Shown here piece by piece: positions 4,762 to 50,308 of a DNA stretch of 64,000 nucleotides (its first letter is position 1; the number at the start of each line of letters is the position of its first letter). Location: assembly GCA_963843455.1 (NCBI GenBank), contig CAWJKE010000016.1, positions 159,506 to 223,505 of the forward strand. The letters are read 5' to 3'. The stretch is from an uncultured Actinomycetota bacterium. GTDB lineage: Bacteria; Actinomycetota; Thermoleophilia; RBG-16-64-13. Made by a program: the position numbers and the translations under genes. Under the pieces are notes generated by a model. It did not search any database. It was not told the origin of the DNA and saw only the letters and a program-made list of their open reading frames with translations.

Positions 4762-4779
4762 GAGGCAGTATGTTCGAGA

Positions 4780-5274: not shown

Positions 5275-5295
5275 GACCAGAGCTGGGAGTGTCGG

Positions 5296-11138: not shown

Positions 11139-11426
11139 GTCCGGAGATCGGGAAGGGTTACAGCCCGAGCGCAGCGGTGGTAGATGCGCAGGGGCAGCCT
11201 CCTGCCCTGGAGTGTCTTGCTGCGCAACAACGTGTATTGACTCACTGACGCCGCATGATAGGCTGCAGCAAGGCAATCCGCGTTGGGGTATCCGGGCACG
11301 AAGGCGAAGTGTGCTGAAAGGGACTGCAATGTCCCAGGCGACTTCGCTCGGAAAGGGGTGCGGATGGGGTGAATCTTTGACGCCTTCCTCGAACTCTTCC
11401 TCGGTGTGACTTCAAGACTGTAGCTA

Positions 11427-14331: not shown

Positions 14332-14335
14332 CCTG

Positions 14336-30731: not shown

Positions 30732-30751
30732 GACCGAAGGAGGTGTTGGCG

Positions 30752-31474
30752 ATGGAGACCCTGGCGCTCTTCTCTGACGTGCACGGCAACCGCTTGGCCC
30801 TTGAGGCGGTTCTCGATGATCTCGAGGCCCGAGAGATCCCGACGGCCTACTGTCTGGGCGATCTGGTGGGCTATGGTCCCGATCCCAATGGAGTGATCGA
30901 CCTGCTGCGCAGCCGTGGGATCGAGAGCCTGCTCGGCAACTACGACGAAGGCGTCGGCTGGGAGACGGGCGATTGCGGCTGCTTCTTCCCGGACGCCGAG
31001 GCCCAACGGATCGGCGAGGCGTCTTACGCCTTCACGGTGGCCACAGTGACCGCCGAGAACAAGGCGCATTTGCGCACTCTCCCGCGGGAATTACACATCG
31101 AACTGGCTGGTAAGAAGGTCCACTTGGTGCACGGCAGTCCACGTCGCATCAACGAGTATCTGCTCCGCGATCGGGATGAACGAACCTATGTGCGGCTGGC
31201 GGAGGCCGAGTCGGATGATGTCCTCGCGTTTGGCCACACCCATGACCCGTGGTTCCGCTGGTACAAGGGCAGACTGTTCGTGAATGTGGGCTCGGTGGGG
31301 CGGCCAAAGGACGGCGATCCCCGAGCCATGTACGTCGTTCTCACGTCATCCGTAGGCGAGCCGGTGGATGTGGAGATCAGGAGGGTCGCGTACGACGTGG
31401 GCGCGGTCGCCGCGGCCATTTTGGGCGTCGGCCTGCCGGCGACGCTCGCCGAGGCGTTGAGGGGCGGCCACTGA
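30752..31474 (+). CDS. metallophosphoesterase (YfcE/MJ0936-like)
   Basis: Motifs DVHGN, GDLVGYGP and GHTH. AAGGAGG ribosome-binding site 9 nt upstream of the ATG at 30752. Confidence 0.75.
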   Translation: METLALFSDVHGNRLALEAVLDDLEAREIPTAYCLGDLVGYGPDPNGVIDLLRSRGIESLLGNYDEGVGWETGDCGCFFPDAEAQRIGEASYAFTVATVTAENKAHLRTLPRELHIELAGKKVHLVHGSPRRINEYLLRDRDERTYVRLAEAESDDVLAFGHTHDPWFRWYKGRLFVNVGSVGRPKDGDPRAMYVVLTSSVGEPVDVEIRRVAYDVGAVAAAILGVGLPATLAEALRGGH

Positions 31475-31491
31475 TCGGCCGGAAGTCGAAC

Positions 31492-32253
31492 ATGTCCATC
31501 CGTCTCGCAATCATCGCCGACTACGGGCCGGAGGACCCGTCGCGCCGGTCGGCGGAAAGGGCTCTCGCTCACGCGGCCGATGCCCTCAGTCTCGAGCTTG
31601 AGGTAGAGTGGTTACCTACCACCACGCTGGACAGAGACTCAAGCCGCGCCTCCTTGTCGGGATTCGACGGCATCTTCGCCCCCGGAGGCGACTACGAGAA
31701 CAAGGACGGCGGGTTGGCGGCGATCCGCTTCGCCCGAGAGGCGGGCTGGCCTTTCTTTGGCACCTGAGGAGGCTTTCAACATGCTCTGGTAGAGCATGCA
31801 CGCAATGTTCTGGGAGTACGCGACGCCGATCACGAAGAGACCGCGCCGCACGCGTCGACGCTCGTTATCACCCGGCTGGTATGCTCTCTTGGAGGCACGG
31901 AAGGGGTAACCTACGTGCTTCCGGGCACGCTCGCCTTCAAGGCGTATGGGGCTGACCGTTCTGTTGAGAAGTTCCTGTGCAACTACGGCCTGAACGAACG
32001 CTATCGCGATCTGATGTTCGCGGGCGACCTCAGGATCGCGGGCGAGGACGGCGAGGGCAACGTGAGGATCATCGAGCTTCAGTCGCACCCCTTCTTCGTG
32101 GCCACCCTGTTCGTCCCCCAGTTGTCCTCGGGACCCGGCAGGCCGCACCCGCTCGTCGTGGCCTTCCTGCGGGCCGCCAAGGCGTTCCGCGGCTCCCGAG
32201 GATCTGGCGGCGTCCTCACCACCGAGAGGACAGGCGATGGCCAAGCAAACTGA
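31492..32253 (+). CDS. CTP-synthase-like class I glutamine amidotransferase domain protein with in-frame TGA (31765..31767) at the catalytic-Cys position; candidate selenoprotein or nonsense-inactivated pseudo-enzyme
   Basis: A single reading frame 31492..32253 is interrupted only by TGA. PGGDYENKDGGLAAIRFAREAGWPFFGT*GGFQHALVEHARNV aligns to E. coli PyrG [44 protein letters not shown]. The C-terminus HPFFVA...HPLVVAFLRAA is conserved, but the catalytic His and Glu are replaced (FVPQL versus FHPEF). Confidence 0.55.
31780..31798 (+). promoter_or_regulatory. candidate bacterial SECIS-like stem-loop (CATGCTC-TGGTA-GAGCATG) starting 12 nt after the in-frame TGA
   Basis: Perfect 7-bp stem built from rare AT-ending codons (CAT GCT CTG GTA GAG CAT) in a high-GC gene. 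The loop contains GU. Confidence 0.4.
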
Positions 32254-32620
32254 CAGTCAGAACCCCTGGATCGGGCGGGAGCTATTCGACGCGCGCGGCC
32301 TGAAGATCGGCACGGTCAGTGGCCTTAGCCTTCCGCGCAGGAAGTTCGGCACCATTTGGCTGCTGGTGGAGACCGAGGCCGGTGATAAGGTGCCCGTGCC
32401 TCTCATCGGGATCCGCTCCTCGGGGGATCGTCTAGTGCTGCCGTACCCCAAGTCCTACGTAGAGAGCGGACCCACTGTGGCGCATGACGGGCCGCTCTCG
32501 CAGGCGGAGCTACGCCGGTTGGCCCTGCACTACGGCTTCGACGACCAACTGCCGGGCGCCGCCGGCTGCCACGGCTGCGGTCTCTGCCGGGCCGGGAGGC
32601 GAGCGGGGCGGCCTCGGTGA
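32237..32620 (+). CDS. PRC-barrel-like domain protein
   Basis: The ATG overlaps the preceding stop. N-terminal 90 aa look PRC-barrel-like, and the C-terminus is low-complexity. Confidence 0.45.
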   Translation: MAKQTDSQNPWIGRELFDARGLKIGTVSGLSLPRRKFGTIWLLVETEAGDKVPVPLIGIRSSGDRLVLPYPKSYVESGPTVAHDGPLSQAELRRLALHYGFDDQLPGAAGCHGCGLCRAGRRAGRPR

Positions 32621-32644
32621 CTCGCGCGAATCGGGGCTAGCTCG

Positions 32645-33985
32645 ATGGAACGCATCGACGTCATCGTTGTAGGCGCCGGACAGGCTGGCCTAGCCCTGAG
32701 TCACGAACTGAGCGCCGGCGGGGTGGAACACGTCGTGCTCGAGCGCGGCCGTGTGGGCGAGTCGTGGCGCCATCGCTATGACAGTTTCTGCTTGGTCACT
32801 CCTAACTGGACCGTGCGGTTGCCCGGCCACCCGTACCGCGGGCCGGACCCTGATGGCTTCATGGTGCGCGACGAGATCGTCGCCGACTTGGAAGAGTATG
32901 CCAGCGGTTTAGAGGCGCCGCTGCGTGAGGGGATCTTCGTGACCCGGGTGGAACCGCTACCCGAGGGCGGCTTTCTCGTTCGCACCCGGGCGGGGGATCT
33001 CAGCAGTCGCGCCGTGGTGCTGGCTACCGGTACCTTCCAGCGGCCCCATCGACCGGCGGTCGCCGAGACCTTGCCCCCCGGCCTGCCCCGGATCAACGTC
33101 GACGCATACCGCAACGAAGGCGCCCTCCCCCCTGGGAAGGTGCTTGTCGTCGGGAGCGGCCAGTCCGGAGCGCAGATCTGCGAAGAGCTGTGCCAGGCGG
33201 GGCGCGAAGTCGTCCTGGCCTGTGGCAAGGCGGCCTGGGTCCCGCGTCGTCTCGGGGGCCGGGACATCTTCTGGTGGCTTGACAAGGTGGGTTTCTTCGA
33301 CCAGACGCTGGAGAGCCTCCCCACCCCGGCCGCGCGCCTGATCCCCAATCCCATGGCAACCGGTCACGATGGCGGTCACGATCTGCACCTGCGTACGCTC
33401 AAGGCCATGGGGGTGACTCTTGCCGGGCACTTCCTGGGGACGGAGAACGGTCGGGCCCACTTCGCGCCGGACCTGCCGGAGAGCGCCGCCTGGGGAGATC
33501 AGCGCTACCGTGACCTCATGGGTCTGATGAAGCGCTTCGCCGCGGAGCAGGGAATCGATCCGCCGCCGATGTACGAGCCGGAACCCCTTGTCGACCGAGG
33601 GCCCGAATGGCTGGATCTCTCCGGCGTCGGCATCGTCATTTTCGCCGGCGGTTTCCGCCCGGGATACCTCTCCTGGCTGCCGCAGCCCCAGGCGTTCGAC
33701 GATCTCGGCTTTCCACACCAGCAAGACGGGGTCAGCACGGTCGTCCCCGGGCTATTCTTTGTGGGCGTCCATTTCATGCGCACGCGCAAGTCCTCGCTCC
33801 TCTTCGGGGTGGGCGACGACGCCGGTCTCGTCTCCGGTCGAATCGGCGACTTCCTCAGGAGCGGACCCCCGTCACAGGATGCACAAAGCTGTAGGGCAGC
33901 CGATACCCCGATGGATAGGGATGAAAATGCGGCGCCGGAGCGTCGGCGTCCGGCCGGTTCAGCATGCCCAGAAGGGGCACCTTGA
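32645..33985 (+). CDS. flavin-containing monooxygenase / FAD-NAD(P)-binding oxidoreductase (CzcO-like)
   Basis: Two dinucleotide-binding motifs (GAGQAG and GSGQSG). The C-terminal ~40 aa are low-complexity and overlap the convergent gene by 130 nt, so the true end may be earlier or frame-shifted. Confidence 0.7.
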   Translation: MERIDVIVVGAGQAGLALSHELSAGGVEHVVLERGRVGESWRHRYDSFCLVTPNWTVRLPGHPYRGPDPDGFMVRDEIVADLEEYASGLEAPLREGIFVTRVEPLPEGGFLVRTRAGDLSSRAVVLATGTFQRPHRPAVAETLPPGLPRINVDAYRNEGALPPGKVLVVGSGQSGAQICEELCQAGREVVLACGKAAWVPRRLGGRDIFWWLDKVGFFDQTLESLPTPAARLIPNPMATGHDGGHDLHLRTLKAMGVTLAGHFLGTENGRAHFAPDLPESAAWGDQRYRDLMGLMKRFAAEQGIDPPPMYEPEPLVDRGPEWLDLSGVGIVIFAGGFRPGYLSWLPQPQAFDDLGFPHQQDGVSTVVPGLFFVGVHFMRTRKSSLLFGVGDDAGLVSGRIGDFLRSGPPSQDAQSCRAADTPMDRDENAAPERRRPAGSACPEGAP

Positions 33986-34469
33986 GCCAACCCCTCTCGA
34001 ACGAGGTGAAGAAGGTCACGTTCCAGTGGAGCTTCTTGAAGAGCCACTTGCCGTCTTCCTTCACATACTCGTTCTCGTAGTAGCCGTGGACCCACTGCTG
34101 CCGGGGGATGCCGCCCACGATCATGGCCTCGGCCAGCCAGGTGGTCCATCTCCCCTTGGCTGTGACGCCCGACGGGTCGATGTCGATGACGGCGCCATCC
34201 ATGAGAATGAGGATGTTGATCCATCCCGGTGTCTCTGTCTGGCCGGGCTGGAGTAGATCGTTGTCCAGAAAGAACTTCTTCACCCCGGCTTTGCCAAGAA
34301 AGAGGCCGGTGCTCTCGATCTCGATGGATTCGGTGTCCTCCGAGAAGAGGCTCGCCACTTCCTCACGATGGTGGGCGTCCATGTAGAAGCCGTACTTGCG
34401 CTGCATATCCTCGATGGCCTGGATATCCTCCAGGCGGATCACTTCGCGTTCGAGCTCATCCAGGTTCAT
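33855..34469 (-). CDS. NTF2-like (SnoaL-like) domain protein, paralog 1
   Basis: 204 aa. A paralog of the 34484..35113 gene, with conserved WxHGxYENxYVKExGxWxxKKLH. Confidence 0.65.
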   Translation of the reverse strand: MNLDELEREVIRLEDIQAIEDMQRKYGFYMDAHHREEVASLFSEDTESIEIESTGLFLGKAGVKKFFLDNDLLQPGQTETPGWINILILMDGAVIDIDPSGVTAKGRWTTWLAEAMIVGGIPRQQWVHGYYENEYVKEDGKWLFKKLHWNVTFFTSFERGWLKVPLLGMLNRPDADAPAPHFHPYPSGYRLPYSFVHPVTGVRS

Positions 34470-34483: not shown

Positions 34484-35113
34484 TCAGTCGCCGGTAATGG
34501 GGTGCTCGAAGGAGAACGGCACTTGGTAGCCCGAGGGATAGGGCGAGTAGATCGTCGGCTCCGCGTCCGGCGGGATCACCTTATCCGGCCCGTGCTGTCC
34601 CACCACGGGCACGTTGAGCCACCCATCCTCGAAGGGCGTGCGGAAGACAAGGTTGAAGTGGAGCTTCTTGAGCTTCCAGATGCCCCCTTCTTTCACATAT
34701 GAGTTCTCATATATCCCGTGGATCCAGGTCTGCCGCAACTCGCCCTCGTGCAACGAGACAGTCGGTTTGGCCTCCATGCCCATGCCGTACCACCGCCCAG
34801 TGGCGGTAGCGCCGCCGGGTTCGACGGTGACGACGCCCTGCAACTGGAACATTATCGACAGCCACCCGGGCCTCTGCGCACGGCCGGGGCCTCCGCCCAG
34901 AAGGTCGACGAAATAGCGCTTCACGCTGTCCTTGCCCTGGTATACGCCCCGGTCGGCCTCCTCGACGCTCGGATCGTCGTCGGTGAAGAGGTCAACTACC
35001 TTCTGCCAATCGCCGTAGTCCTGGTAGTAGCCGAATATCTTCTGGAGGTTCTCGATCTTCTTGATGTCGTCCAGCCGAGTCAATCGCGCCTGGAGTTCTT
35101 CTAGCGTCGCCAT
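34484..35113 (-). CDS. NTF2-like (SnoaL-like) domain protein, paralog 2
   Basis: 209 aa, tandem with paralog 1. Confidence 0.65.
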   Translation of the reverse strand: MATLEELQARLTRLDDIKKIENLQKIFGYYQDYGDWQKVVDLFTDDDPSVEEADRGVYQGKDSVKRYFVDLLGGGPGRAQRPGWLSIMFQLQGVVTVEPGGATATGRWYGMGMEAKPTVSLHEGELRQTWIHGIYENSYVKEGGIWKLKKLHFNLVFRTPFEDGWLNVPVVGQHGPDKVIPPDAEPTIYSPYPSGYQVPFSFEHPITGD

Positions 35114-35116
35114 GGC

Positions 35117-36294
35117 CTACCCCTTACCGATCGTCGTCGCCGTCTTGCCCGGGGTGCTCAGAGCCTCCATCGCCGCCTCGTTCAGTTCCACTCCGAGCCC
35201 CACGCCCGTGGGCGGGTAGAGATACCCACCTTCGTAGCGGGGCACGTTCACGGCCAGGTCATCGGTGATGGGCTCGCTGACCGTATCGAACACATCGTGG
35301 ATATGAAGAGGGCCGATGTTTTCATGCACGAGTTTGGACATCCACTCGTCGGCCACGAGCAGATGGGTGTAGGCGGCCGCCTCGAGACCCGAACCCATCA
35401 TGCACCCGCAGACGACCGGCAGTCCCGCGGCCTTGGCCACCGTGACCCACTTCTGGGCGCGCAGCAGCCCGCCCGCCTTGGGGATCTTGATGAAGAACCC
35501 GTCGGCAGCGTTCTTCTGGACTATCTCCATGAGGTGCTTCAGCTCAATGGCCGCCTCGTCGGCGAACACGGGTATGCCTGTCTTCTGGCGCAGGCGTGCC
35601 ATGCCGTCCACGTCCCACCAGGGAACAGGCTGCTCCACCATGGCAAGGTCGTACTTCTCCAACTTCTTGAGGATCATGAGCGCCTGATAATAGTTCCAGG
35701 CTCCGTTGGCATCGATGAAGATCTCGATGTCGTCCCCCACCTCTTCCCTCAGGGTCCTCAGGTTCTCCACGTCTTCGTCGCCCGACCCGGCGCCGGTCTT
35801 GAGTTTGAGAACCCGGAAACCGGCCGCGACCGCCCCGGTGCCGATGCGGATGATCTCCTCCAGAGGTCCGGCGGGCAGGACGAATCCCAGGGGGACTCTT
35901 TCGGTGGTAAGCCCGCCGAGCAGTTTGTACACGGGCACGCCCAGCGCTTTGCCCATGATGTCGTGGAGGGCGTAGTCGATGACCGCCTTTGCCTGGTTGT
36001 TGTCGCGGGCGGCGACATCCATGCGGGCCACGATCTTCTCGATGTTGAAGGGGTCCTCGCCCAGGAGGATGGAGGGGGCGAAGATGTTGTTGATGACGCT
36101 CATTATCGAGTCCTGGCTCTCGCCCCGGTACCAGGCCGACGTGCCTCCTGTGTCGCCCAAGCCGATGATGCCGTCATCGGTGTGGATCTTCACCACCACG
36201 CCCGCTGATCCCAGTTCCACCCCGCCGCCCATGGGAAAGGGCTTCTTGAACTTGGCCGTTACCGGAAAGCATTCGATCTTCGTGATGCGCACTA
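35117..36294 (-). CDS. mandelate racemase / muconate lactonizing enzyme family protein (enolase superfamily)
   Basis: GTG start (VRITKIE) with a GGGAGG ribosome-binding site. MR/MLE N-terminal and TIM-barrel motifs (KLKTG, DANGAW, FADE). Confidence 0.75.
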
Positions 36295-36306
36295 GAACCT
36301 CCCGAA

Positions 36307-36969
36307 CTAGCGGACAAGCGGGCGCAGGATCGCACGGCAGGGACCGGCATCGCCCTTGAGCAGAAGAAGTGGCAGACAAAGCAGTTCGTACTCGCCGGGC
36401 GGCACATTGGCAAGAGCACAGCCTTCCAGAATGTACACTCCCGCCGTGAGAAGCGACATGTGCGTTCGCACGATGCTGTCGTTGTCGTTGAAGTAGCCTA
36501 CCGTGATGCAGTCCATGCCGAAGAGAAGTATCTCCTTCTCGGCAAGGTAGACGGCCGCTTCCTCACCAAGGTACACGTAGTCCTCGAGCCAGGTCGGTGA
36601 TTCGTATACCCTGGGCGAGTTGGCCGTCTTGCAGAGGATCCGCTCGCCCTTCCTGATGTTGTGCTTTTCCAGTTCCTGCACCTTGATCGTTTGCGGGTCC
36701 TCGATCTCGATAACCCGCGCCGGGCCTATGGTCGCGTCGAGTGCCATGTCGGTCACCGTGGAGCCGTCGGGGATGAAGTGACGAGGACAGTCGATGTGCG
36801 TACCGGTGTGCGAGAGCATCTCCAACATGGTGATGGTCACCGGTGACCCGAGTTCCGCCTCGTGGAGGCGGTAGATCTTCGGCTTCACAGGATCCAGGAT
36901 CAGGTTGTGCATTCCCTGCTTCAGGGGCAGCGAGATGTCGTACCAACCCGGGGGGGCTGTTCCAGCCAT
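36307..36969 (-). CDS. cyclase family protein (kynurenine-formamidase-like)
   Basis: ATG at 36969 (MAGTAPPGW) with an AAGGAGG ribosome-binding site. HTGTHIDCPRHF motif. Confidence 0.75.
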   Translation of the reverse strand: MAGTAPPGWYDISLPLKQGMHNLILDPVKPKIYRLHEAELGSPVTITMLEMLSHTGTHIDCPRHFIPDGSTVTDMALDATIGPARVIEIEDPQTIKVQELEKHNIRKGERILCKTANSPRVYESPTWLEDYVYLGEEAAVYLAEKEILLFGMDCITVGYFNDNDSIVRTHMSLLTAGVYILEGCALANVPPGEYELLCLPLLLLKGDAGPCRAILRPLVR

Positions 36970-37150
36970 GAGAGCCTCCTTCATGCGCGATCGACAGCGC
37001 CGGCCAGAGCGCACCCCACCATACTTGCGGCCCATCCGGCAGTCAAGAACTCCACCAAGATGAGCTATTCTTGGCCATCGGGCAGGTTTGGGCCACCCGA
37101 GCGCTGTGGAGCCGGCCGTCCGCAAGTGCCCAGAAGGGAAGGACTGATCG

Positions 37151-38242
37151 ATGCCAAACAACCAATACGCCAAGCTCGTCCAGCCCCTGCGGCTCAGGAC
37201 CGAGCTGATTCATCCCTCCTTTCGCGGCAAGATCGCCGACTTCTCACTGGTCTATGACGAGAAGGCCATGCCTGAGTCCCCCATTTGGACGGAGACTTAC
37301 CACGCCTACGCACCCGGAACAGGTGTCATGGCTCCGAGCCACCTGGCTCCCGTCGTCGACGGCAGGCCGGTGGAGGCACTCAGGAGTGTGGGGCAGCACG
37401 CCCACAATGATTTCGACGAGGTCTACTTCTTCTACGGGACCGACCCCATAGATAACACCCGCCTGGGCGGGCAAGTCGAGATGTGGCTGGGGCACGGAGA
37501 AGACGCCCAGAAGTTCGTCATGAAAGACCCGACCGCCGTGTACGTGCCCAAGGGGCTGGCTCACAACCCCTGGATCGTCACCAAGGTCACCGACGCCAAG
37601 CATCCCATCATGATAACCACCGTCGCCTTGACCAAGAACTACAGCCTGGGCCCCGACGCGGTCACGAATTATCCGTACCCCCCGACGTTCTCCCCGGACC
37701 TGATCGGGGCGCCGCAGCCCGGGAACGGGAAGTACGCCCACTTGGTCAACCGACTCACCTTGTCGCAGGACATCTACATCTCCTTCCTTATCGGTAGAGT
37801 CTGCACGCCGAATCTGATGTTCGACGACAAGGTCTGCCGGGCGCCGTTGTGGGCGGAATTCTTCCTGGTCTATGCCGGCGGGACCGGAGTGGGAGTCCCC
37901 ACCTTGGCCGACATCGCCAAGAACGACGCCATGTCCTACTGGGATTGGACCAAGGGGATGCAGCACTATCAGAGCTATGACGAGGTGTTCCTCTACCTCC
38001 CCACCGACCCCTATGAGACTCTGGATCTCGGAGGAGAAGCAGTGGCCTACCTCGGGGACGAGAGCTACAGCATCACCGAGCCATCGGCCGTCTACGTCCC
38101 AGGGAAAGTGCTCCACAATCCCAATTACTACAAGCGGGTGGATCGGCCCTACTACATGATCGTGCTGGCTATGACCGACAACGCCAAGTTTCACGAAGGC
38201 GAGTTCACGCCGGTCCCTGCGCCGGACACCTTCAGGTTCTAG
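37151..38242 (+). CDS. bicupin protein (two cupin-like domains)
   Basis: 363 aa. Internal duplication (VYVPKGLAHNPWIV...HPIMITTVAL versus VYVPGKVLHNPNYYKRVDRPYYMIVLAMT). Confidence 0.65.
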   Translation: MPNNQYAKLVQPLRLRTELIHPSFRGKIADFSLVYDEKAMPESPIWTETYHAYAPGTGVMAPSHLAPVVDGRPVEALRSVGQHAHNDFDEVYFFYGTDPIDNTRLGGQVEMWLGHGEDAQKFVMKDPTAVYVPKGLAHNPWIVTKVTDAKHPIMITTVALTKNYSLGPDAVTNYPYPPTFSPDLIGAPQPGNGKYAHLVNRLTLSQDIYISFLIGRVCTPNLMFDDKVCRAPLWAEFFLVYAGGTGVGVPTLADIAKNDAMSYWDWTKGMQHYQSYDEVFLYLPTDPYETLDLGGEAVAYLGDESYSITEPSAVYVPGKVLHNPNYYKRVDRPYYMIVLAMTDNAKFHEGEFTPVPAPDTFRF

Positions 38243-38255
38243 GAGCCGACTCAAG

Positions 38256-39515
38256 ATGGCCATCGCGATCGTCGGCATGCTCGACGAGAGGGAAGAAGCG
38301 CTCACCGTTATCCGGGATCGCATCGGGCAGAGGGGGCATGATACCTGCCTGATAGATATCAGCGTGGGAAGCGGAGCGATTGTCCCGACGCTCCAGCCCG
38401 ACGTGAGCTGGCAGGAGTTGGCGGAGTTGGCCGAAGTCGGCGCGGGGCTCACGCTCGAGCGAGGCGACGCTCCTACCTCCATCATGGCCGAAGGACTCAA
38501 AGCGAAGATACGCGACCTGTACGGACCGCGGCGTCCTCGAGGGAATGATCGCCATCACGGGGATGACCGGCGCTCTCATCTCGCTGCCCGCTATGCAGGA
38601 ACTGCCGTTCGGGGTCCCCAAGCTCCTCATATCGGGTGCCACCGGCCAACCTGTGCACGCGGCGAAGTTCGGAGACTACTTCGCGCGCACAGACATCACC
38701 GTGATGCACACCGTGGTAGACACCGTGGGCATGAACCCCCTGGTCAGGGCGCTCGCCCTCAACGGCGCCGATGCCATCTCCGGGATGGTGGAGGGGGGCC
38801 CGGTCTCGCTGGGGGGGGACAAACCTTCCATCGCCGTGACGGAGTTTGGCTACTGCGACAAGGGTGCGTACTACATACGGCAGAACTTGGAAAGTGACTA
38901 CGAGATCGTCTCCATCCACGCCATGGGGGTGGGCGACAAAGCCGCCCTGGAACTTGCCCCGCAAGGAGTCTTCAAGGCGTTCGTCGACCTCGTCCCTGGG
39001 GCCTTCAGCGAGCATCTGCTGGGCGGCAACAGGGATGCGGGGCCGGACCGCCTGGATGTGGCGTGGAATCTGCCCATCCCCTACATCTTCTGTCCCGGCG
39101 GCTTTGACATGATCAGTTGCGGTCCCCTCGAGAGAAGAGACCGAGACGACCCGCTGTGGGGACCGCGAAGACTGGCCGAAAGGAAGCTGTTCATACAAGC
39201 GCCGCGAGTCCAGGCCAGGACGAGCGCGGAGGAGATGGAGTACGTCGCCCTTGCTGCCGCGGACAGACTGAACCGATACCAGGGCAAGGCAAGGGTCAAG
39301 GTCGTCATCCCCCTGAGAGGCTTCTCCTCGCTCAGCGTGGAAGGCGGCCCGCTTCACGATCCCGAGTCGGATGAGGCGTTCTCTCTGGCTCTTGAAGTCG
39401 CGCCTGGACCCGGAGATAGACGTCGATCGAGGTGGATTCCGACATCAACAGCCCCACTTTCGCGAGAGCCGTCACCGATGCCCTGTCACGCGCGTTCGGG
39501 GAGGTCGATTCCTAG
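38256..39515 (+). pseudogene. UPF0261 (Tm-1-like) family protein, three +1 frame disruptions (about 38530, 39396, 39428)
   Basis: The segments MAIAIVGMLDE..., DRGVLEGMIAITGMTGALISLPAMQELPFGVPKLLISG..., SRLDPEIDV and IEVDSDINSPTFARAVTDALSRAFGEVDS* lie in successive +1 frames. Colinear with the intact paralog at 42764. Confidence 0.65.
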
Positions 39516-41300
39516 TGGACAAGGTTCATTTCGTCGATCAGACCATCCGGGACGCCCAGCAGAGCCTCTGGGGCCTGATGATGAGGACCGACCACATAGT
39601 CCCCATCGCGGAGATGATGGACAGGGTCGGATATCTCGCCATCGCCACGGTGGGTTCCCAGGCGTTCACCATCCAGGTGCGCAACCACGGTGAAGACCCC
39701 TGGGAGAGGATCAGACTTCTTTCGGCACTGGCGCCTGCGACCTGCCTGCGCGGCTCGTACCAGACGGCGAGCCTGTCCTCCTTCGATCTGAGCACGCCCC
39801 GAGACGTCATCTCGCTGTGGATCAAGCGTTCGGTCGCCAACGGGATACGAAGCTTCTGGATCTGCGATTACCAGGAGAACATGGAACGGTTCCGCTACTT
39901 CGCGCAGATAGCCAAGGCCGAAGGGGCGGAGGTCGTCACTTCGTTGATGTATACCAGCAGCCCTCTCCACACCGACGACCACTGGGTGGAGAAGACGCGG
40001 CTGATAGCCGACGCCAAGGACTGCATCGATCGCATCATGATCGAGGACGCTTCGGGCGTCATGACCCCCGAGGGCACCCGCGAGACTGGTCTCGATCGTC
40101 CAGAAGAATTGCGAGGGGATACCGCTCGAGTTCCATTGCCACTGCAATTCGGGCCTGGCTCCGCTCTGCTATCTGGAGGCCATCCAAGCCGGCGTCACCA
40201 CCGTCCATACGGCGGTGGCCCCTCTGGCCAACGGCACGTCCCTACCGGCCGCCGAGAGCGTGCTCAAGAACATCCGCCGTTTGGGTTACGAGTCGGACCT
40301 GGATGAGGACGCTCTGGCGGTGGTCTCGGCTCATTTCAGGGAGATCGCCGAGAGAGAGGGGCTGCCCATCGGAAGGCCGATGGAGTACGACCTCTTTCAC
40401 TTCGAGCATCAGGTCCCAGGCGGCATGGTGACGAACCTGACGCGGCAGCTTCGGGAGATAGGGATGGAGCATCGCCTGGACGAGATCCTGGAGGAAGTGA
40501 TCGAGGTGCGCCGGGAGTTCGGATATCCCGTGATGGCGACTCCCTATTCGCAGATCGTGGGCGCCCAGGCGTTCGAGAACGTGGTGTCGGGAGAGCGATA
40601 CGGCACGGTCACGGACGAGACGATCAAGTACGTCTTGGAGTACTACGGCAAGCCGGCGTTCCCCATCGACCAGGGTGTCATGGACAGGGTGATGAGCCTG
40701 CCGAGGACACAGGAATTCCTCGATTGGAGGCCGGAAAGATACCTGAAGTCCGTCGACGAATTGCGCCAGGAGATCGGCCCCGACCTTTCCGACGACGACC
40801 TCCTGCTCAAGATCTTGATCCCGGGCGGCGGCGCGAAGCGCCGCGGGCCGACCGGGCCCGCTTCGGCGGCGCCCGAGGGGGCACCCGCTGCGAGGGCGGC
40901 GGCGCCGGCCACCCGAGGGGCGCCCGCCGGCGCCTCACCCGATCTCACCCATTTCCCCAGGCAGTTCAGTGTGGACGTGGACGGAGAGGTGTTCAACGTC
41001 AAGGTGAGCCCCGTGTGGGACGAAGGCGAAGGCGCCGCCGGCGTGGTGAAGGAACCGCGCGCACCCTCCGGGCCGCGGGAACTACCCGAGGGCGCCGTCG
41101 TGTGCGGCGCGGCGGGATTGGTGCTCTCCATCCAGCTCAAGGTGGGAGATTCCGTGGCCGACGGTGATGAGGTCGCGACGATCGAGTCGATGAAGATGAG
41201 GCGATGCATCGTCTCGTCCAAGCAGGGAGTCGTACAGGAGATCCGGGCGCAAGAGGGTCAGATGGTCCAGGCCGAAGATGTCCTGATAGTGCTGGCGTAG
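39515..41300 (+). pseudogene. pyruvate/oxaloacetate carboxyltransferase (5S subunit-like) plus C-terminal biotinyl (BCCP) domain, PycB/OadA-like; +1 frame disruption near 40080
   Basis: GTG start at 39515. Has VHFVDQTIRDAQQSL, and the HCHCNSGLAPL...TAVAPLANGTSLPAAE region continues in the +1 frame (ORF 40215..). Biotinylation motif IESMKM near the C-terminus. Confidence 0.7.
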
Positions 41301-41301
41301 C

Positions 41302-42771
41302 ATGATCAAGAAGATCCTCATCGCCAATCGGGGCGAGATAGCCGTTCGCGTCATGAGGGCGTGCCGCGAGATGGGGATCCCTTCGGTGGCCGTGTACTCC
41401 GAGGCGGACAGGGAAGCGCTGTTCGTCAAGTATGCCGACGAGGCGTTCCCGATCGGGCCGGCGCCGGCTTCCCTGAGCTACCTCAATATCCAAAAGATCA
41501 TCGACACCGCCAGAGAGAGTGGCGCCGACGCGATCCATCCGGGCTACGGTTTTCTGGCCGAGAATCCAGGATTTGCCGCTGCCTGCGAACACGCGGGGCT
41601 CAAGTTCATAGGGCCCTCGAGCCGGGTGATCGAACTCCTGGGTGACAAGGCGGCCGCCCGGAGAGAGATGACGGCGGCGGGCGTTCCGGTAGTGCCGGGC
41701 ACGAACGAATGCGTTGCGGCCGCCGAGCAGGCCCTAGCCATCGCGGGTGAGATCGGTTATCCCGTCATCATCAAGCCCTCCGGAGGCGGAGGCGGGATCG
41801 GGATGACTGTCGCGGCGGATGAAGGGGAGTTGCCTAAGGCGCTCGAATCCGCGCGGGAGACCGCCCTCAACGCTTTCGGCATCGGCGATGTCTACATCGA
41901 GAAGTACCTTGCCGATCCCCGTCACATCGAGTTTCAGATCCTCGCCGACTCGCACGGGAACGTCGTCCACTTGGCCGAACGGGAGTGCTCCATCCAGCGG
42001 AGGCATCAAAAACTCATCGAGGAATCTCCATCCCCGGCCATCGATGCCGAGACCCGAAGAGTGATGGGCGAGGTGGCCGTCAACGCGGCCCGCTGGGTGG
42101 GGTATGAAGGAGCGGGAACGGTCGAGTTCCTCTGGTCCAACGGAGAGTTCTACTTCATGGAAGTGAACGCGCGCGTCCAAGTGGAGCACCCGGTGACCGA
42201 GATGGTGACCGGCATCGACATCGTCAAAGAGCAGATACGGATCGCGGCCGGTCTTCCCCTCAGCTTCGCTCAAGACGACGTCAGGGTGAACGGCAGCGCC
42301 ATAGAATGCCGCATCAATGCCGAGGATCCTCTGAACGGCTTCGCTCCCACGCCCGGCAGGATCCAGGCCTACCATCCTCCCGGGGGGGCCGGCATCCGGG
42401 TGGACAGCGGAGTCTATAGCTCGTACACCATACCGCCCTTCTACGATCCCCTCCTGTCGAAGCTGATCGTGTGGGGCCGGGACCGGAGCGAGGCTATCGC
42501 CAGAATGCAGCGGGCGCTGTTCGAGTACACCATCATGGGCGTCATGACCAATATCCCTTTCCATCGGGCGGTCATGAGTAACGAGCGGTTTGTGCGAGGA
42601 GAGCTGGGGACGCACTTCGTGGACCGGGAGGTCGCGCTGATAGACGATATGAAGAGGATCGCCGAACTGGAGGGCGGCCTTGGGGAAAGGCTGCCGCTGC
42701 TCTCTGGGGACCGTAAGAGAATCGCCGCCATAGCGGCGGTAACAGCCATGATCGGGGGGACACATGGGTGA
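41302..42771 (+). CDS. biotin carboxylase (AccC/PycA-like)
   Basis: 489 aa, intact. ATP-grasp with a biotin carboxylase C-terminus. Confidence 0.9.
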   Translation: MIKKILIANRGEIAVRVMRACREMGIPSVAVYSEADREALFVKYADEAFPIGPAPASLSYLNIQKIIDTARESGADAIHPGYGFLAENPGFAAACEHAGLKFIGPSSRVIELLGDKAAARREMTAAGVPVVPGTNECVAAAEQALAIAGEIGYPVIIKPSGGGGGIGMTVAADEGELPKALESARETALNAFGIGDVYIEKYLADPRHIEFQILADSHGNVVHLAERECSIQRRHQKLIEESPSPAIDAETRRVMGEVAVNAARWVGYEGAGTVEFLWSNGEFYFMEVNARVQVEHPVTEMVTGIDIVKEQIRIAAGLPLSFAQDDVRVNGSAIECRINAEDPLNGFAPTPGRIQAYHPPGGAGIRVDSGVYSSYTIPPFYDPLLSKLIVWGRDRSEAIARMQRALFEYTIMGVMTNIPFHRAVMSNERFVRGELGTHFVDREVALIDDMKRIAELEGGLGERLPLLSGDRKRIAAIAAVTAMIGGTHG

Positions 42772-44002
42772 GAAGCCGAGAGTATTGCTGGTTGCCACGC
42801 TGGATTCCAAGGAGGTCGAGACCCGGTTCCTCCGGGACCGTCTCGAAGAGGCCGGGCTAGAGGTGTACCTGCTGGACGCCAGCATCCGCCGCACCGTCGA
42901 GGGGGGCGCCGCCATCACCCCGGACCAGATCGCCGCGGCGGTGGGCACGACGATGCCCGAGATCCGTGCCCTCAACCACGAGGGCAAGTGCATGGCGCTC
43001 ATGATCCAGGGCGCCATCGTCCGCGCCCACGAGTTGCACGAGCGAGTGGGCCTGAGCGGCATCATCGCGGCAGGTGGGTCCGGGGGGACCACTCTGGGCA
43101 CGGCGGTCATGCGAACCTTCCCCTTCGGCCTGCCCAAGGTCATGATCTCGACCATGGCTTCGGGCATGACCCGGCCGTTCGTGGGCACCAAAGACATCGT
43201 CATGCTCAACTCAGTGTGCGATGTGGCGGGTCTGAACACCGTCACGCGGCGCGTCTTTGAGAACGGCGCCCTGGCGCTTGCCGGCATGGCCCACGGATAC
43301 AAGCCTCCGGTGGCTTCGGGCAGACCGCTGGTGGCCATGTCGACCCTCAGCACTACCGACAAATGCAGTGTGAGGGTCCGCGGCGCTCTCGAGCAGAGGG
43401 GATATGAGGTCATGGTCTTCCACTCCCAGGGGACCGGCGGAGTGGCCATGGACGAGACCATCCGGGAGCAGGACGTCTCCCTGGTCGTGGACCTCTCGTT
43501 GATCGAGGTGGGCGACCACCTGGCCCAGGGTCTGTACGACGGGGGACCCGACAGGTGCAAGGCGGCCCTGGAAAAGGGCGTTCCGACCATCTTCGCGCCC
43601 GGCAACATCGATTTTCTGGTCGACGGACCCGTCGAGGGATCCCGGGTGCGCTTTCCGGGAAGGCGCTATCACATCCACAACGCCTCGGTGACCGCCGTGC
43701 GGGCGAACGCGGACGACTTCAGGCGTCTGGCCGAGCATATGGCGGGGCTCATCAAGGAGGCGAAGGGCCCGGTCGCCTTCTTTGTGCCGCTACTCGGCTT
43801 CTCCTCTCACGACAGCGAGCAGGGCCATCTGCACGACCCGTCGTTGCCGCCGGTCTTCGCCGAGCACCTGCAGAAGGTGATGCCGGAGGGCGTGCCGGTG
43901 ATCGTCCTCGACTGTCACATCAACGACGAGCTGTTCGCCGACAAGATCATCGAGCAGGCACTATCGTTCCGGGAAACGGTCCCACCCTCGGCGAATCTGT
44001 AG
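42764..44002 (+). CDS. UPF0261 (Tm-1-like) family protein, intact paralog
   Basis: 412 aa with GIIAAGGSGGTTLGTAVMRTFPFGLPKVMISTMASG. The ATG overlaps the biotin carboxylase stop. Confidence 0.75.
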   Translation: MGEKPRVLLVATLDSKEVETRFLRDRLEEAGLEVYLLDASIRRTVEGGAAITPDQIAAAVGTTMPEIRALNHEGKCMALMIQGAIVRAHELHERVGLSGIIAAGGSGGTTLGTAVMRTFPFGLPKVMISTMASGMTRPFVGTKDIVMLNSVCDVAGLNTVTRRVFENGALALAGMAHGYKPPVASGRPLVAMSTLSTTDKCSVRVRGALEQRGYEVMVFHSQGTGGVAMDETIREQDVSLVVDLSLIEVGDHLAQGLYDGGPDRCKAALEKGVPTIFAPGNIDFLVDGPVEGSRVRFPGRRYHIHNASVTAVRANADDFRRLAEHMAGLIKEAKGPVAFFVPLLGFSSHDSEQGHLHDPSLPPVFAEHLQKVMPEGVPVIVLDCHINDELFADKIIEQALSFRETVPPSANL

Positions 44003-44806
44003 CGCGAGGACTCGCACCCTGCGCGGGACTTCGCGGCCGGTCATCGGGATCCCGTGCCCTGGGGCAAGCACCAGCGGCTCAAGGTCCGCCATGGAGGCAA
44101 CCGATTCTTTGGCCGCCCGCCAATTCCAGGTGGTGTACCAGGGCGGTCCGGACACCCTGTGCTCCTTTCGCAGAAGACTCCACATGGAGTTGAGGTTGAT
44201 GGTCACCAGAGCGTCGCCGGTGATCAAGACCCGGTCGGCCCTGCGGAAGAAGGCGACGTGTCCGGGCGTATGGCCCGGTGTGGGAACCGCCTCCCAGTCC
44301 GGGAGACCCGGGAGTTCGGCGACCAGATCGAGCGGGCGCGCCACGTCCTTGAAGCTGGCCTGCGACACCATGGCCTCGGTCCGCTTCGACCCCAGGAGCC
44401 GCAGCAGAGGCAGGATGACCCAGCGGTCGAGCGGGTTGGCGTACTCGTGGAAAGTCGAGACGTCTCCCAGAACCAGCGGCAACTCGGCGGGATGCACCCA
44501 GACGGAGCATTTCCACAGATGCGCCAGTTCGCGAGCCGCACCGGCATGATCCGGGTGATCGTGCGTGAGAAGGATCGAAGCGGGAGACGAGTCCTCCCCG
44601 AATAGGGACTCCGCGGCCCTTTGGATCAGTGCACCACACTTTGCCGATGCGGCGTCGATGAGCACCCACGATGGACCCGACCGCACGAAGTAGATGTTGG
44701 ACCTAAGAAGCCCCTTGCCCACCGCCATCCAGTGGACTCCCGGGGCGATCTCCTGGGGCGTCGCGGCGTCGGTCTTACCCAGCTGCCGAGCCGTCGCCCG
44801 GCTCAT
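43961..44806 (-). CDS. MBL-fold metallo-hydrolase
   Basis: THDHPDHAG motif. Start MSRATARQ at 44806 is uncertain. Confidence 0.65.
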   Translation of the reverse strand: MSRATARQLGKTDAATPQEIAPGVHWMAVGKGLLRSNIYFVRSGPSWVLIDAASAKCGALIQRAAESLFGEDSSPASILLTHDHPDHAGAARELAHLWKCSVWVHPAELPLVLGDVSTFHEYANPLDRWVILPLLRLLGSKRTEAMVSQASFKDVARPLDLVAELPGLPDWEAVPTPGHTPGHVAFFRRADRVLITGDALVTINLNSMWSLLRKEHRVSGPPWYTTWNWRAAKESVASMADLEPLVLAPGHGIPMTGREVPRRVRVLALQIRRGWDRFPER

Positions 44807-45273
44807 TGGTTCTGGAGCAGTGGGTAGCCGGCGGCCTCCCAGGCGCGGAAGCCGCCATCGAGGTTGTAGACGTTCGTGTAGCCCGCCTTGACCAGCGCGC
44901 GGGCGGCGGTGGCGCTCATGCTCCCGCTCCGGCAATAGACCACGATCTTGGCGTCGTGGGCTTGGGGGTATTCGCCGAGACGCGCCTCGGTCTGGTCGAA
45001 CGGGATGAAGGCATCCGTCTTTTCGATCTCACCTTCGTAGGGGATATGCACATTGACGAAGAAGAAGTCCTTGTTCTGCAGCATGGTGTCAAGTTCCTGC
45101 GGAAGGATATCGGTGTATTGGCCGCCACCCTCCACCGGGACGGCCTGTCCCACCGCCTGACCGGGGGCGGTCGATGAACTGGCGGTCGATGAGCTGGGGA
45201 CCGGGGCGCTGGAACAGGCGCCCACCGCAAGTGCGACTACCACCAGCAAGGCCACGAGCAGAAGAGATCTCAC
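44803..45273 (-). CDS. rhodanese-domain lipoprotein (sulfurtransferase-like)
   Basis: Signal peptide plus lipobox LAVGAC. Active-site loop CRSGSMS. Confidence 0.7.
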   Translation of the reverse strand: MRSLLLVALLVVVALAVGACSSAPVPSSSTASSSTAPGQAVGQAVPVEGGGQYTDILPQELDTMLQNKDFFFVNVHIPYEGEIEKTDAFIPFDQTEARLGEYPQAHDAKIVVYCRSGSMSATAARALVKAGYTNVYNLDGGFRAWEAAGYPLLQNQ

Positions 45274-45283
45274 TTGGTCTACC

Positions 45284-45658
45284 TCAAGCAGTCGGACGGG
45301 GCTTTCTTGGTTTTGGCTCTTTCGGCGGCAAGGCTCCCACGAATTCGATCGACCGGAGAAGCCAGTGCTCGAAAGCGTCGGGATCGCTCCATACCGGCTC
45401 GAGCATGACCACGTATTCCTTCATGATCCTGCCGGGCATGGGCTCGAACGGCATAGCGCCGACCCTAGCCTGGGCGTCGGCCCGATCCGCCTCCGACAAT
45501 CGCAGTACGATCTTCTTTCCGTGTACGCCCGCGAACATGTTCCCGTTCAGGAAGAGACACAGGCCGCCGAACATCTTGCGGCGTTCGACCAGCGGAAACG
45601 AATCGGCCGCCTCTGCCAAAAGGTCGCTGAGCTCGCTTGAAGCCTTTTCCCAGTCCAT
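45284..45658 (-). CDS. TfoX N-terminal domain protein
   Basis: 124 aa with a TfoX_N-like pattern (MFGGLCLFLNGNMFAGV). Confidence 0.55.
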   Translation of the reverse strand: MDWEKASSELSDLLAEAADSFPLVERRKMFGGLCLFLNGNMFAGVHGKKIVLRLSEADRADAQARVGAMPFEPMPGRIMKEYVVMLEPVWSDPDAFEHWLLRSIEFVGALPPKEPKPRKPRPTA

Positions 45659-45671
45659 GGCTCCGCCTCCC

Positions 45672-46100
45672 CTACCGATCCTCTAGGACGGTCTTCAGCT
45701 TGACCAACTGACCTATCTCGTCCACCATCGTGCGCTTGACCGAGCCTGACAGGAACCTGGCTAGGCCTCTGGGTTCCCACCATAGCGCGAAGGTGAGGCG
45801 GACCCCGCCATCAGCCGGCTCCAAAACGTACAGCCCTCTGGGCCGGGCCGGACCCGCGATCGCGCGAAAGCCCAGCCGCATCGGACGCTCGTACTCGGTG
45901 ATCTCATAGTCCGCCGCAATCCGGTGACCGCCCGGGCCGCGGACCCCCTGACGCCAGACGGCGCCCGCGCCCTGACCGGAGACGTGCTCGATGTCGAGGA
46001 CGCCGGGCCGCCAGAGCAGGTTGTTCTCGCCTGCGGCCAGAAAGTCGAACACGTATTCTGGACTACGGTGTATCTCGATGGTGGCCTCTGCACGTGGCAT
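45672..46100 (-). CDS. SRPBCC (polyketide cyclase/dehydrase START-like) family protein
   Basis: About 143 aa from MPRAEATIEIHRSPEYVFDFL. Confidence 0.6.
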   Translation of the reverse strand: MPRAEATIEIHRSPEYVFDFLAAGENNLLWRPGVLDIEHVSGQGAGAVWRQGVRGPGGHRIAADYEITEYERPMRLGFRAIAGPARPRGLYVLEPADGGVRLTFALWWEPRGLARFLSGSVKRTMVDEIGQLVKLKTVLEDR

Positions 46101-46253
46101 GCGGCGCTTCCCCCAGGACCCCTCAACTATGCTTGCAGCACCTGCACAGCGCATGCTACCGCTTGAACGGGGTTCTCGCTTCCTGCTCGCGGCGTTCGCA
46201 GATGAAGGATAGAATCAAGGACGCTGTGACACCCTCGAGCGGATGAGCAAGAT

Positions 46254-47156
46254 GTGGTTCTCGCGTCGACCGGCAGAGAGGCAACGGCCATGAAGATGGG
46301 ACTCTACCGCCTCCTCATACCTGTTGCGCAAAAGGCGGTTCGAAAGCCGAAGGAGCCTTGCGGCAGAGAGCTCTTTCTGGCCACCGAGGCGGGCCGGGTC
46401 CGCGTGCTCGGCTACAACCTGGATACGCCAGAGACGCTCCCTCTCTTCGTGGACATGCATGGTGGCGGCTTCATCCTGGGGCACGCCGAAATGGACGACC
46501 CCTTCATGCCCAAGGTCGCCCAGACGGCTCGGGTGAAGATCCTCAGCATCGATTACAGCCTTGCTCCCCAGCACCCCTTCCCCCAGGCCCTCAATGAGTG
46601 CTATGCGGTGGTCAGGTACGCAAAGCAGCACCCGCAAGAGTTCGGGATCGACCCCAGGAGCATCGCGGTGGGCGGTCACAGCGCCGGTGGCAATCTGAGT
46701 GCCGGCATCTGCCTGCTCGACGCGGAACGCGGGGAACTGGGGCTCAAGGCACTGATACTGGACTATCCTCCGCTCGATCTCTGCACCGACCCCTATCTCA
46801 AGCCGCGGCCCGAGAAGGCCATTCCTCCCCGGATCGCTCGCATCTTCGATGCCTGCTACACCGGCAGCAGGGAGGCGGCCAAAAACCCGCTCATCTCCCC
46901 CCGGTACGCCAGCACGGATCAGATAAGGTCGTTCCCGCCGACCTTGGTCATCACCGCCGGCCAGGACTCGTTGGCCCCCGAGGCGGAGGCTTTCAAGGAC
47001 AGGCTGATCGAAGCCGGAGTGCCGGTGACCTTCAAACGCTTTCAGGACGCGCCACACGGCTTCACCCTCTCGGGCGATCCGGGAGCGGAGGAGGCCTGGC
47101 AGATGATGATAGATCATCTCATCCGGTACTTGGGACGGGCCGGGGCGTCCGCGTGA
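46254..47156 (+). CDS. alpha/beta hydrolase (HSL-like esterase/lipase)
   Basis: HGGGF oxyanion motif and GHSAGG nucleophile elbow. Confidence 0.8.
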   Translation: MVLASTGREATAMKMGLYRLLIPVAQKAVRKPKEPCGRELFLATEAGRVRVLGYNLDTPETLPLFVDMHGGGFILGHAEMDDPFMPKVAQTARVKILSIDYSLAPQHPFPQALNECYAVVRYAKQHPQEFGIDPRSIAVGGHSAGGNLSAGICLLDAERGELGLKALILDYPPLDLCTDPYLKPRPEKAIPPRIARIFDACYTGSREAAKNPLISPRYASTDQIRSFPPTLVITAGQDSLAPEAEAFKDRLIEAGVPVTFKRFQDAPHGFTLSGDPGAEEAWQMMIDHLIRYLGRAGASA

Positions 47157-49128: not shown

Positions 49129-49155
49129 GCCGGCTCCTTTCGTCTTGGCTGAGCC

Positions 49156-49930: not shown

Positions 49931-50308
49931 ACTACTTTCCTCCCCCGCTCCGGCATACCTTGGCGGCACCAGCGCCCGCAGTCCCGCCGGCTCACGCATG
50001 TCCTACTGCATCATCGAGAGCCGCGCGTACCGTGTAACCGTGAGTGTCAAGTCCCGCCACCCATCTGTCAAGTCCGAACGTCCGGGGCACCACGGCGAGA
50101 CCTCCGATACCACCGTCGCGGACTCCAACCATCGACCATCGGATTAGGTGGATCCACACTTGAGGCCGGGGTCTCAGGCAGGGGACTGCCGGTTGGTCGC
50201 GAATAACGGGTCTAGCCACCGTGGCGGTCGATTTAGCCAAGGCCTTCTGCGGGCGTTTCTGCACGATTGCGAACAACGCTGACTGCGACAGAACGTGCTG
50301 ACGTTAGG

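Follow-up and report, generated by a model that had tools for sequence, protein, structure and literature searches.

The stretch of DNA analysed here (the window, 64,000 nucleotides with a G+C content of about 63%) derives from an uncultured Actinomycetota bacterium of the Thermoleophilia (GenBank assembly GCA_963843455.1, contig CAWJKE010000016.1, positions 159,506 to 223,505). According to Pfam and NCBIfam scans of its open reading frames (ORFs), it carries a group of four genes in which two members of the UPF0261 (Tm-1-like) family, UPF0261-1 and UPF0261-2, enclose a PycB-like carboxyltransferase with a C-terminal biotin carboxyl carrier protein (BCCP) domain and a biotin carboxylase (Table 1). 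As these genes abut or overlap, they form one operon: the TAG stop codon of UPF0261-1 and the GTG start codon of the carboxyltransferase have 1 nt in common, the carboxyltransferase and biotin carboxylase genes are 1 nt apart, and the biotin carboxylase gene overlaps with UPF0261-2 by 8 nt. A promoter and terminator scan of positions 36800-44400 revealed nothing above the expectation from shuffled sequence. With some reservation, we consider it probable that this operon serves to activate and then carboxylate a phenolic (4-hydroxyaryl) alkyl ketone, for instance 4-hydroxyacetophenone or acetovanillone, and as such is a variant of the MarK-AcvCDEF, HpeHI-HpeCBA-HpeD and Xcc systems.

Table 1. 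Genes at 33.8-45 kb of the window, with strand and the basis of the assignment.
Gene product	Position	Strand	Basis
SnoaL-like (NTF2-like) paralogue	33855-34469	-	Pfam/NCBIfam
SnoaL_4/NTF2-like	34484-35113	-	Pfam/NCBIfam
MR/MLE cycloisomerase-like	35117-36379	-	Pfam
PF04199 cyclase	within 36307-37173	-	Pfam
Bicupin, 363 aa	37151-38242	+	Internal repeat, AF2/Foldseek
UPF0261-1	38256-39515	+	PF06792 and PF23189, split across frames
Carboxyltransferase (HMGL-like TIM barrel and PYC_OADA) with C-terminal biotinyl domain	39515-41300	+	Pfam PYC_OADA and Biotin_lipoyl
Biotin carboxylase (PycA/AccC type), intact	41302-42771	+	Biotin_carb_N/CPSase_L_D2/Biotin_carb_C
UPF0261-2, intact	42764-44002	+	PF06792 and PF23189
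Metallo-beta-lactamase-fold hydrolase (MBL)	43961-44935	-	Pfam Lactamase_B

The locus was compared, by tblastn and clustering of flanking ORFs, with 49 loci retrieved with a UPF0261-2 alignment from a set of genomes in which each GTDB species has a single representative, and with two additional metagenome contigs (L001 and L002), 51 loci in total. The architecture of the window itself, UPF0261-1, carboxyltransferase with BCCP, biotin carboxylase and UPF0261-2 (type A), is found in invariant order in 38 of the 49 fetched loci and in L001 and L002; its carriers are uncultured Actinomycetota and Acidobacteriota, with protein identities of 62-91%. The linkage of UPF0261 with pycAB-like genes, the recurrence of which the original prediction had left to a comparison of genomes, thus holds in the same four-gene order over two phyla and is far beyond chance. 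A second architecture (type B) in Sphingomonas, Thauera aromatica, Aromatoleum, Geobacter and others consists of a UPF0261-2 orthologue, a free BCCP (ETMKL), a biotin carboxylase, a carboxyltransferase and a NagD-like HAD phosphatase. The UPF0261-2 orthologues that head these type B loci are 55-73% identical to the window protein, with 67-73% for those of Geobacter in marK-acvCDEF-like loci. In L018, a metagenome-assembled genome (MAG) of the Acidobacteriaceae, no biotin carboxylase match was found between the type A carboxyltransferase and UPF0261-2 (positions 2585-11230); the interval harbours a thiolase and, with 55% identity to 5KS8 and both LLRGQNLLGY and KDM preserved, a carboxyltransferase of the canonical PycB-like kind.

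The UPF0261 family received its first catalytic function in 2025 with MarK (Saro_1862) of Novosphingobium aromaticivorans, which phosphorylates acetovanillone, 4-hydroxyacetophenone and related phenols upon conversion of ATP to ADP and is encoded by the first gene of the marK-acvCDEF operon (Saro_1862-1858) (PMC12624787). The view of the original prediction that UPF0261 proteins are without assigned function is thereby outdated, MarK being a UPF0261 aromatic ketone kinase (PMC12624787). In the structure 9MPY, acetovanillone is held by G195, H219, H304 and H348, and D14-T15-K16, a motif more than 90% conserved among MarK homologues with K16 being essential for activity, is located at the putative ATP site; MarK dimerises via its N-domains, and the distance from the ATP site to the substrate site is 25 angstroms (PMC12624787).

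The alignment of UPF0261-2 with MarK spans the entire protein (phmmer with 9MPY, E 2.6e-139, residues 1-399 on 1-398), and type A UPF0261-2 orthologues are 49-56% identical to MarK by BLASTP. The ATP-site motif reads D14-S15-K16 (MarK numbering here and below), with D and K invariant and either T or S at position 15 in the clade, while in the substrate pocket H219, H304, H348, T196 and F283 are retained and I285 is replaced by V. G195 has become S in the window protein, and G or S is found in the clade, at a position where MarK contacts the ligand via the backbone N. Conservation of D14, [TS]15, K16, H219, H304, H348, T196, F283 and [VI]285 extends to at least 29 clade members. At the sequence level, UPF0261-2 is a MarK homologue as defined by the authors who described MarK, and it looks like a MarK orthologue with the predicted function of an ATP-dependent phenolic-ketone kinase. 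A literature search for Tm-1-like proteins together with carboxylase and kinase found nothing.

While the biotin carboxylase is ordinary (NCBIfam NF006406, 782.8 bits with a cut-off of 739), the carboxyltransferase requires closer consideration. Its best PDB match is PycB (5KS8, E 1.3e-80), followed by OadA (2NX9), and it narrowly passes the domain-level NCBIfam PycB model with 410.9 bits against a cut-off of 402. As the arrangement of a biotin carboxylase and a carboxyltransferase with fused BCCP is also that of PycAB, these matches would be consistent with a housekeeping PycAB, an oxaloacetate decarboxylase or a 2-oxoglutarate carboxylase situated between two unrelated UPF0261 genes. On the other hand, the PycB, OadA and 5S-subunit equivalog models are all failed by wide margins (score and cut-off in bits: NF010644, 302 and 734; oadA TIGR01108, 383 and 756; NF008984, 229 and 827). 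Furthermore, LLRGQNLLGY and FDAMND, the motifs for 2-oxoacid substrates, have given way to LRGSYQTASLSSF and WICDYQEN, and both motifs are replaced in all type A carboxyltransferases.

The carboxyltransferase retains D and H-x-H as ligands of the metal, and likewise the catalytic Thr of PGGMxTN (RDAQQS, FHCHC and PGGMVTN in the window). The position of OadA K178 in the KDM motif, which we take from the 2NX9 structure to be the carbamylated metal-bridging lysine, is occupied by Glu (IEDASG) in the window and in most type A proteins, and by Ser, with a Glu two residues later, in a subset (ISDESG), whereas the AcvE-like carboxyltransferases of type B loci retain the Lys. Glu may serve the type A carboxyltransferases as a natural carboxylate in place of the carbamate.

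AcvE of the acetovanillone carboxylase is itself PycB-like (bioRxiv 10.1101/2022.04.28.489975), and type A carboxyltransferases are 37-43% identical to the AcvE-like proteins of type B loci versus 32-36% to PycB and OadA (5KS8, 2NX9), a modest margin. In a neighbour-joining tree they are sister to the AcvE-like group, with which they have the motifs SLWG, LE[FV]HxHC and TR(R)Q in common. Cumulatively, the failed equivalog models, the Glu at the K178 position, the loss of the substrate motifs, the affinity to AcvE and the canonical PycB-like gene that L018 has next to the module exclude a housekeeping pyruvate carboxylase, the very finding which the original prediction had named as speaking against it and which motifs, hidden Markov model (HMM) cut-offs and tree contradict. 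With the order of the four genes including both UPF0261 genes invariant over two phyla, a fortuitous location of any of the three housekeeping enzymes at this place is very improbable. Identities as PycAB, OadA and CfiAB were rejected on the basis of active-site motifs, HMM cut-offs and synteny.

The pathway proposed for the operon is built at every step on homology and context. In the first step UPF0261-2, as its homology and the kept residues suggest, would put the phosphate of ATP on the phenolic hydroxyl group. The biotin carboxylase would then load CO2 on the biotin of the BCCP domain, and the atypical carboxyltransferase, by homology to the AcvE/Xcc-type enzymes and by context, would transfer it to the methyl or methylene carbon beside the ketone of the phosphorylated substrate, giving rise to a beta-keto acid. 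Subsequent conversion of the product to a CoA ester by a CoA-transferase or ligase and cleavage by a thiolase are suggested by genes that neighbour the module in relatives: a 3-oxoacid CoA-transferase A/B is found in nine type A loci, an SCP-x-type thiolase in four and an acyl-CoA synthetase in two, and CoA-transferase and thiolase beside the module fit a beta-keto acid as product. None of these genes, the acyl-CoA synthetase included, is present in the window. Other recurrent type A neighbours are SDRs, sigma54 regulators and Fer4 with AFOR or Mo-oxidoreductase genes. In the known route, HpeCBA carboxylates 4-phospho ketones only, and the HAD enzyme HpeD subsequently dephosphorylates the carboxylated product (PMC9618137). 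Given the full-length match of UPF0261-2 to MarK, this hydroxyphenylethanone route of Acv, Hpe and Xcc (PMC9618137; bioRxiv 10.1101/2022.04.28.489975) would largely explain the pathway. The original prediction had suggested an uncharacterised carboxylation-linked catabolic or modification pathway, of which carboxylation-linked catabolism survives as the best reading but the attribute uncharacterised does not.

Several observations weigh against a role of the module in phenolic ketone degradation. The assignment of the substrate draws upon the 49-57% identity to MarK and the pocket residues of UPF0261-2, while compared to marK-acvCDEF-type loci the carboxyltransferase is only 39% and the biotin carboxylase 46-49% identical, and the exchange of the carbamylated lysine for Glu at the metal site implies that the carboxylated substrate could differ. 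Of the 59 positions at which MarK, Tm-1 and the UPF0261-2 clade do not vary, UPF0261-1 keeps only 28, so that its activity cannot be inferred. Neither a CoA-transferase nor a thiolase is encoded within the 64-kb window. In several actinobacterial relatives the module adjoins Mo-oxidoreductase and Fer4 or AFOR genes, which may point to other substrates. Finally, tblastn with three HAD queries, which matched nine type B loci, detected a HAD phosphatase within 10 kb in none of the 38 type A loci and none in the 64-kb window, which leaves one step of the known pathway unaccounted for. Two candidates for a substitute phosphatase were rejected. The MBL-fold hydrolase of the window is not homologous to an MBL-like protein of Geobacter ('fam18'), neither of the two being conserved, and the Metallophos phosphoesterase at 30743-31474 is located 7 kb off and recurs only in the close relative L052.

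Part of these observations would be accommodated if the module carboxylated a non-aromatic or polyphenol-derived ketone or enol, such as a cyclic dione or an aliphatic methyl ketone in anaerobic polyphenol breakdown, with the two UPF0261 proteins making the enol or hydroxyl phosphate of that compound. The status of the type A carboxyltransferases as a separate clade, with a substrate loop of their own and the carbamylated lysine exchanged for Glu, the divergent pocket of UPF0261-1, the Mo-oxidoreductase and Fer4 or AFOR genes beside the module in actinobacterial relatives and the bicupin, cyclase, MR/MLE and SnoaL genes adjoining it in this genome are all compatible with such a substrate. However, UPF0261-2 preserves the residues with which MarK contacts acetovanillone (with S for G195 at a backbone contact) and shows 67-73% identity to the Geobacter proteins of marK-acvCDEF-like loci, and the flanking genes of type A modules differ from locus to locus. 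This makes a non-aromatic or polyphenol-derived substrate unlikely, although it is to be reckoned with, and a phenolic ketone the probable one.

The second paralogue, UPF0261-1, comprises about 418 aa after removal of three single-base insertions and is about 28% identical both to MarK and to UPF0261-2. Its clade shows 62-84% identity between phyla, with derived residues in common with Geobacter copies, and this good conservation suggests that UPF0261-1 is a functional protein. As judged through family-wide conservation only, the N-domain motifs are altered, including the predicted ATP site, where D-T-K is changed to D-E-R (R being invariant), and GGSGGT has become TGMTGA; in the pocket, the distal part of which is changed, H304 is replaced by Q, H348 by L or I (L in the window), T196 by F or Y and I285 by S, while G195 and H219, which hold the phenolic oxygen in MarK, are retained. 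UPF0261-1 therefore lacks D-T-K and H304/H348, the residues by which MarK membership is defined, and is nevertheless an obligatory conserved partner in the type A module.

We regard UPF0261-1 as one of two things, the partner subunit in a heteromeric kinase, an option that derives from the N-domain dimer of MarK and the 25-angstrom gap between ATP and substrate, or a handler of the phosphorylated product that replaces the HAD phosphatase. In more specific terms, UPF0261-1 could, instead of being a redundant kinase, be a product-specific phosphotransferase, with the phosphoryl group either returned to ADP or hydrolysed, or form an obligate heterodimer with the MarK-like subunit, a proposal that is tentative and rather doubtful. 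If true, the phosphotransferase would remove the phosphoryl group from the carboxylated phospho-aryl beta-keto acid, standing in for the HAD phosphatase, and these soil and sediment bacteria, which are mostly anaerobic, could then activate phenols without net expense of energy, while the heterodimer would account for the unexplained 25-angstrom gap in MarK. In five marK-acvCDEF-like loci of Geobacter and its relatives (L012, L013, L016, L023 and L029), a UPF0261-1-like gene, 35-38% identical and with the signature R16, Q304, S285 and [LI]348, directly follows the carboxyltransferase gene, with the HAD phosphatase gene further downstream. This co-occurrence indicates that the second paralogue is not strictly an alternative to the phosphatase.

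In the window, two of the four genes are disrupted. Alignment with relatives locates single-base insertions at about 38526, 39394 and 39425 in UPF0261-1, which is consequently read in three frames, all spanned in tblastn by the intact orthologue of L002, and a single one at about 40082 in the carboxyltransferase gene, which is read in two frames. Should these insertions be real, the operon would be decaying and UPF0261-1 and the carboxyltransferase gene would be pseudogenes. This possibility is favoured by the occurrence of four frameshifts within 1.6 kb while the bicupin, biotin carboxylase and UPF0261-2 genes are intact, by the location of the insertions outside long homopolymers and by the presence of the insertion at 39425 in L052 as well. 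On the other hand, the frames are, indels aside, without stops or signs of decay; the repaired UPF0261-1 matches an intact metagenomic protein of 418 aa (P0121) from end to end with 96% identity, the intact orthologues of the disrupted genes being 92-96% identical. L052, with 96% DNA identity over 17 kb and the same synteny, is free of three of the four insertions and has 27 other, private indels, by which its biotin carboxylase gene is broken. Many related contigs of MFD MAGs, with names in the style of long-read assemblers, carry different, unshared frameshifts in the same genes. Decay of the operon is accordingly quite improbable, and the four insertions are most likely long-read assembly errors.

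Outside the operon, a livH-type permease gene (BPD_transp_2; 14300-15215, plus strand) is split at about 14560 by a single frameshift, with the N-terminus in frame 2 and the rest in frame 0 (ORF 14544-15215, covering Pfam profile positions 83-269 only), which points to assembly errors across the window. The insertion at 39425 (GTC-G-ATCGAGG), which falls at a GATC site, also occurs in L052, an independent assembly; either basecalling may have erred systematically at a methylation motif, or the change may be real and specific to the lineage.

With respect to the surrounding genes, every gene named in the original prediction is present, the bicupin being recognised via its internal duplication and a structural model; a second SnoaL paralogue, 43% identical to the first, falls just outside the region then delimited, which starts at 34484. 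The best NCBIfam match of the MR/MLE enzyme, muconate cycloisomerase, stays under its cut-off, and the MBL gene is convergent with UPF0261-2 and overlaps its 3' end. A gap of 13 nt separates the bicupin gene from UPF0261-1, which follows in the same orientation, and the two are probably co-transcribed here. The bicupin protein matches no Pfam or NCBIfam model and belongs to a small family of about 112 clusters without a Pfam model. Its two halves are 30% identical (E 4e-24), and its AlphaFold2 (AF2) model, made with 40 homologues in the alignment (mean confidence score pLDDT 93), leads in Foldseek to oxalate decarboxylase (OxdC), MncA and quercetinase.

The original prediction had further considered the two NTF2-like proteins, the MR/MLE enzyme, the cyclase and the bicupin as tailoring enzymes of the same pathway, a view which the comparison of loci does not sustain. 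A tblastn search of the 51 related loci for the SnoaL, MR/MLE, cyclase, bicupin and MBL genes yielded next to nothing: for the block of two SnoaL, MR/MLE and cyclase genes only one MR/MLE match (L011) and one weak SnoaL match (L003) were obtained, and the MBL gene has no match in these loci, but is found in L052. The complete set of two SnoaL, MR/MLE, cyclase, bicupin and MBL genes accompanies the module only in the 96%-identical L052, and the flanking genes were rejected as conserved partners; the block of two SnoaL, MR/MLE and cyclase genes is a lineage-specific neighbour outside the conserved module. The bicupin gene, likewise, is found beside the UPF0261 module in L052 only. In L053, L054 and L055 its homologues are located near a Mo-oxidoreductase (Pfam AhtL-like_1st and Molybdopterin) with Fer4_11, tandem AFOR, SDR, cyclase and small cupin genes, and no UPF0261 gene was found near bicupin homologues in other MAGs. 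These contexts may hint at an anaerobic metabolism of polyphenols without connection to the UPF0261 module.

Further genes at 29592-33985 and 44803-47156 encode an SBF-family transporter, the Metallophos phosphoesterase, a Pyr_redox_3 flavin monooxygenase-like protein, a rhodanese, a Polyketide_cyc2/SRPBCC protein and an Abhydrolase_3 esterase, with the gene order from Metallophos through Polyketide_cyc2 kept in L052 only. Further along the window follow an OYE-family flavin oxidoreductase (48016-49155), an SDR (49156-49995) and a GGDEF-EAL protein (51532-53094).

The combination of phenol phosphorylation and biotin-dependent carboxylation, a target for lignin valorisation, came to light only in 2022-2025, its carriers being Rhodococcus and a few cultured Proteobacteria. 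The conservation of a variant among uncultured Actinomycetota and Acidobacteriota of soils and sediments suggests that this chemistry is wider spread and architecturally more varied than found in published surveys, which demanded homologues of AcvC and AcvF, both lacking in this variant. The function of the second conserved UPF0261 subfamily could clarify phosphoryl transfer by this fold, and a PycB-type carboxyltransferase with Glu for the carbamylated lysine is a concrete test case.

Compared with known systems, the window operon has in common with PycAB, OadA and CfiAB a biotin carboxylase together with a carboxyltransferase with C-terminal BCCP, the TIM-barrel fold of the latter, its metal ligands (Asp and His-x-His) and the Thr conserved in PGGMxTN, but its carboxyltransferase is without the carbamylated lysine and the 2-oxoacid motifs, and the carboxylase genes are always located between two UPF0261 genes. 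Tomato Tm-1 shares with both paralogues the two-subdomain UPF0261 fold, with MarK and UPF0261-2 the D-T-K and GGSGGT motifs lost in UPF0261-1, and with UPF0261-1 the pocket residues M283 and L348. Unlike the proteins of the window, for which no such domain or partner is found, Tm-1 possesses a C-terminal TIM-barrel domain and binds a viral replicase.

The common denominator with HpeHI-HpeCBA-HpeD of Rhodococcus rhodochrous GD02, AcvABCDEF of Sphingobium sp. SYK-6 and XccBCA of the Aromatoleum p-ethylphenol cluster is the homologous biotin carboxylase and PycB-like carboxyltransferase and the logic of ATP-dependent phenol phosphorylation, biotin-dependent carboxylation of the acetyl group and CoA-dependent cleavage of the beta-keto acid. 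The kinases of these systems, however, are two-subunit, AMP-producing dikinases similar to phenylphosphate synthase and unrelated to UPF0261, and their carboxylases consist of three separate subunits, followed by a NagD-like phosphatase.

The closest relationship is to MarK-AcvCDEF of N. aromaticivorans, which equally combines a UPF0261 kinase, a biotin carboxylase and a PycB-like carboxyltransferase in one operon and the kinase of which aligns over its full length with UPF0261-2, ATP-site and acetovanillone-pocket residues included. New relative to this system are the invariant second UPF0261 paralogue, strongly diverged and located at the other end of the operon, the fusion of BCCP to the carboxyltransferase in all type A loci (with ESMKM in the window), where AcvC is a separate protein, and the absence of an AcvF-type HAD phosphatase; the carboxyltransferase, in addition, is distinguished from its AcvE-like relatives by their 37-43% identity and by Glu in place of the metal-bridging Lys. 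The gene order UPF0261-1, carboxyltransferase/BCCP, biotin carboxylase and UPF0261-2 contrasts with marK, BCCP, biotin carboxylase, carboxyltransferase and HAD phosphatase, exactly the layout of the type B loci, of which the one in Aromatoleum shows the arrangement of sigma54 regulator/acsA, SDR and thiolase genes as in the EtpR-controlled p-ethylphenol/p-hydroxyacetophenone cluster (PMC4630880).

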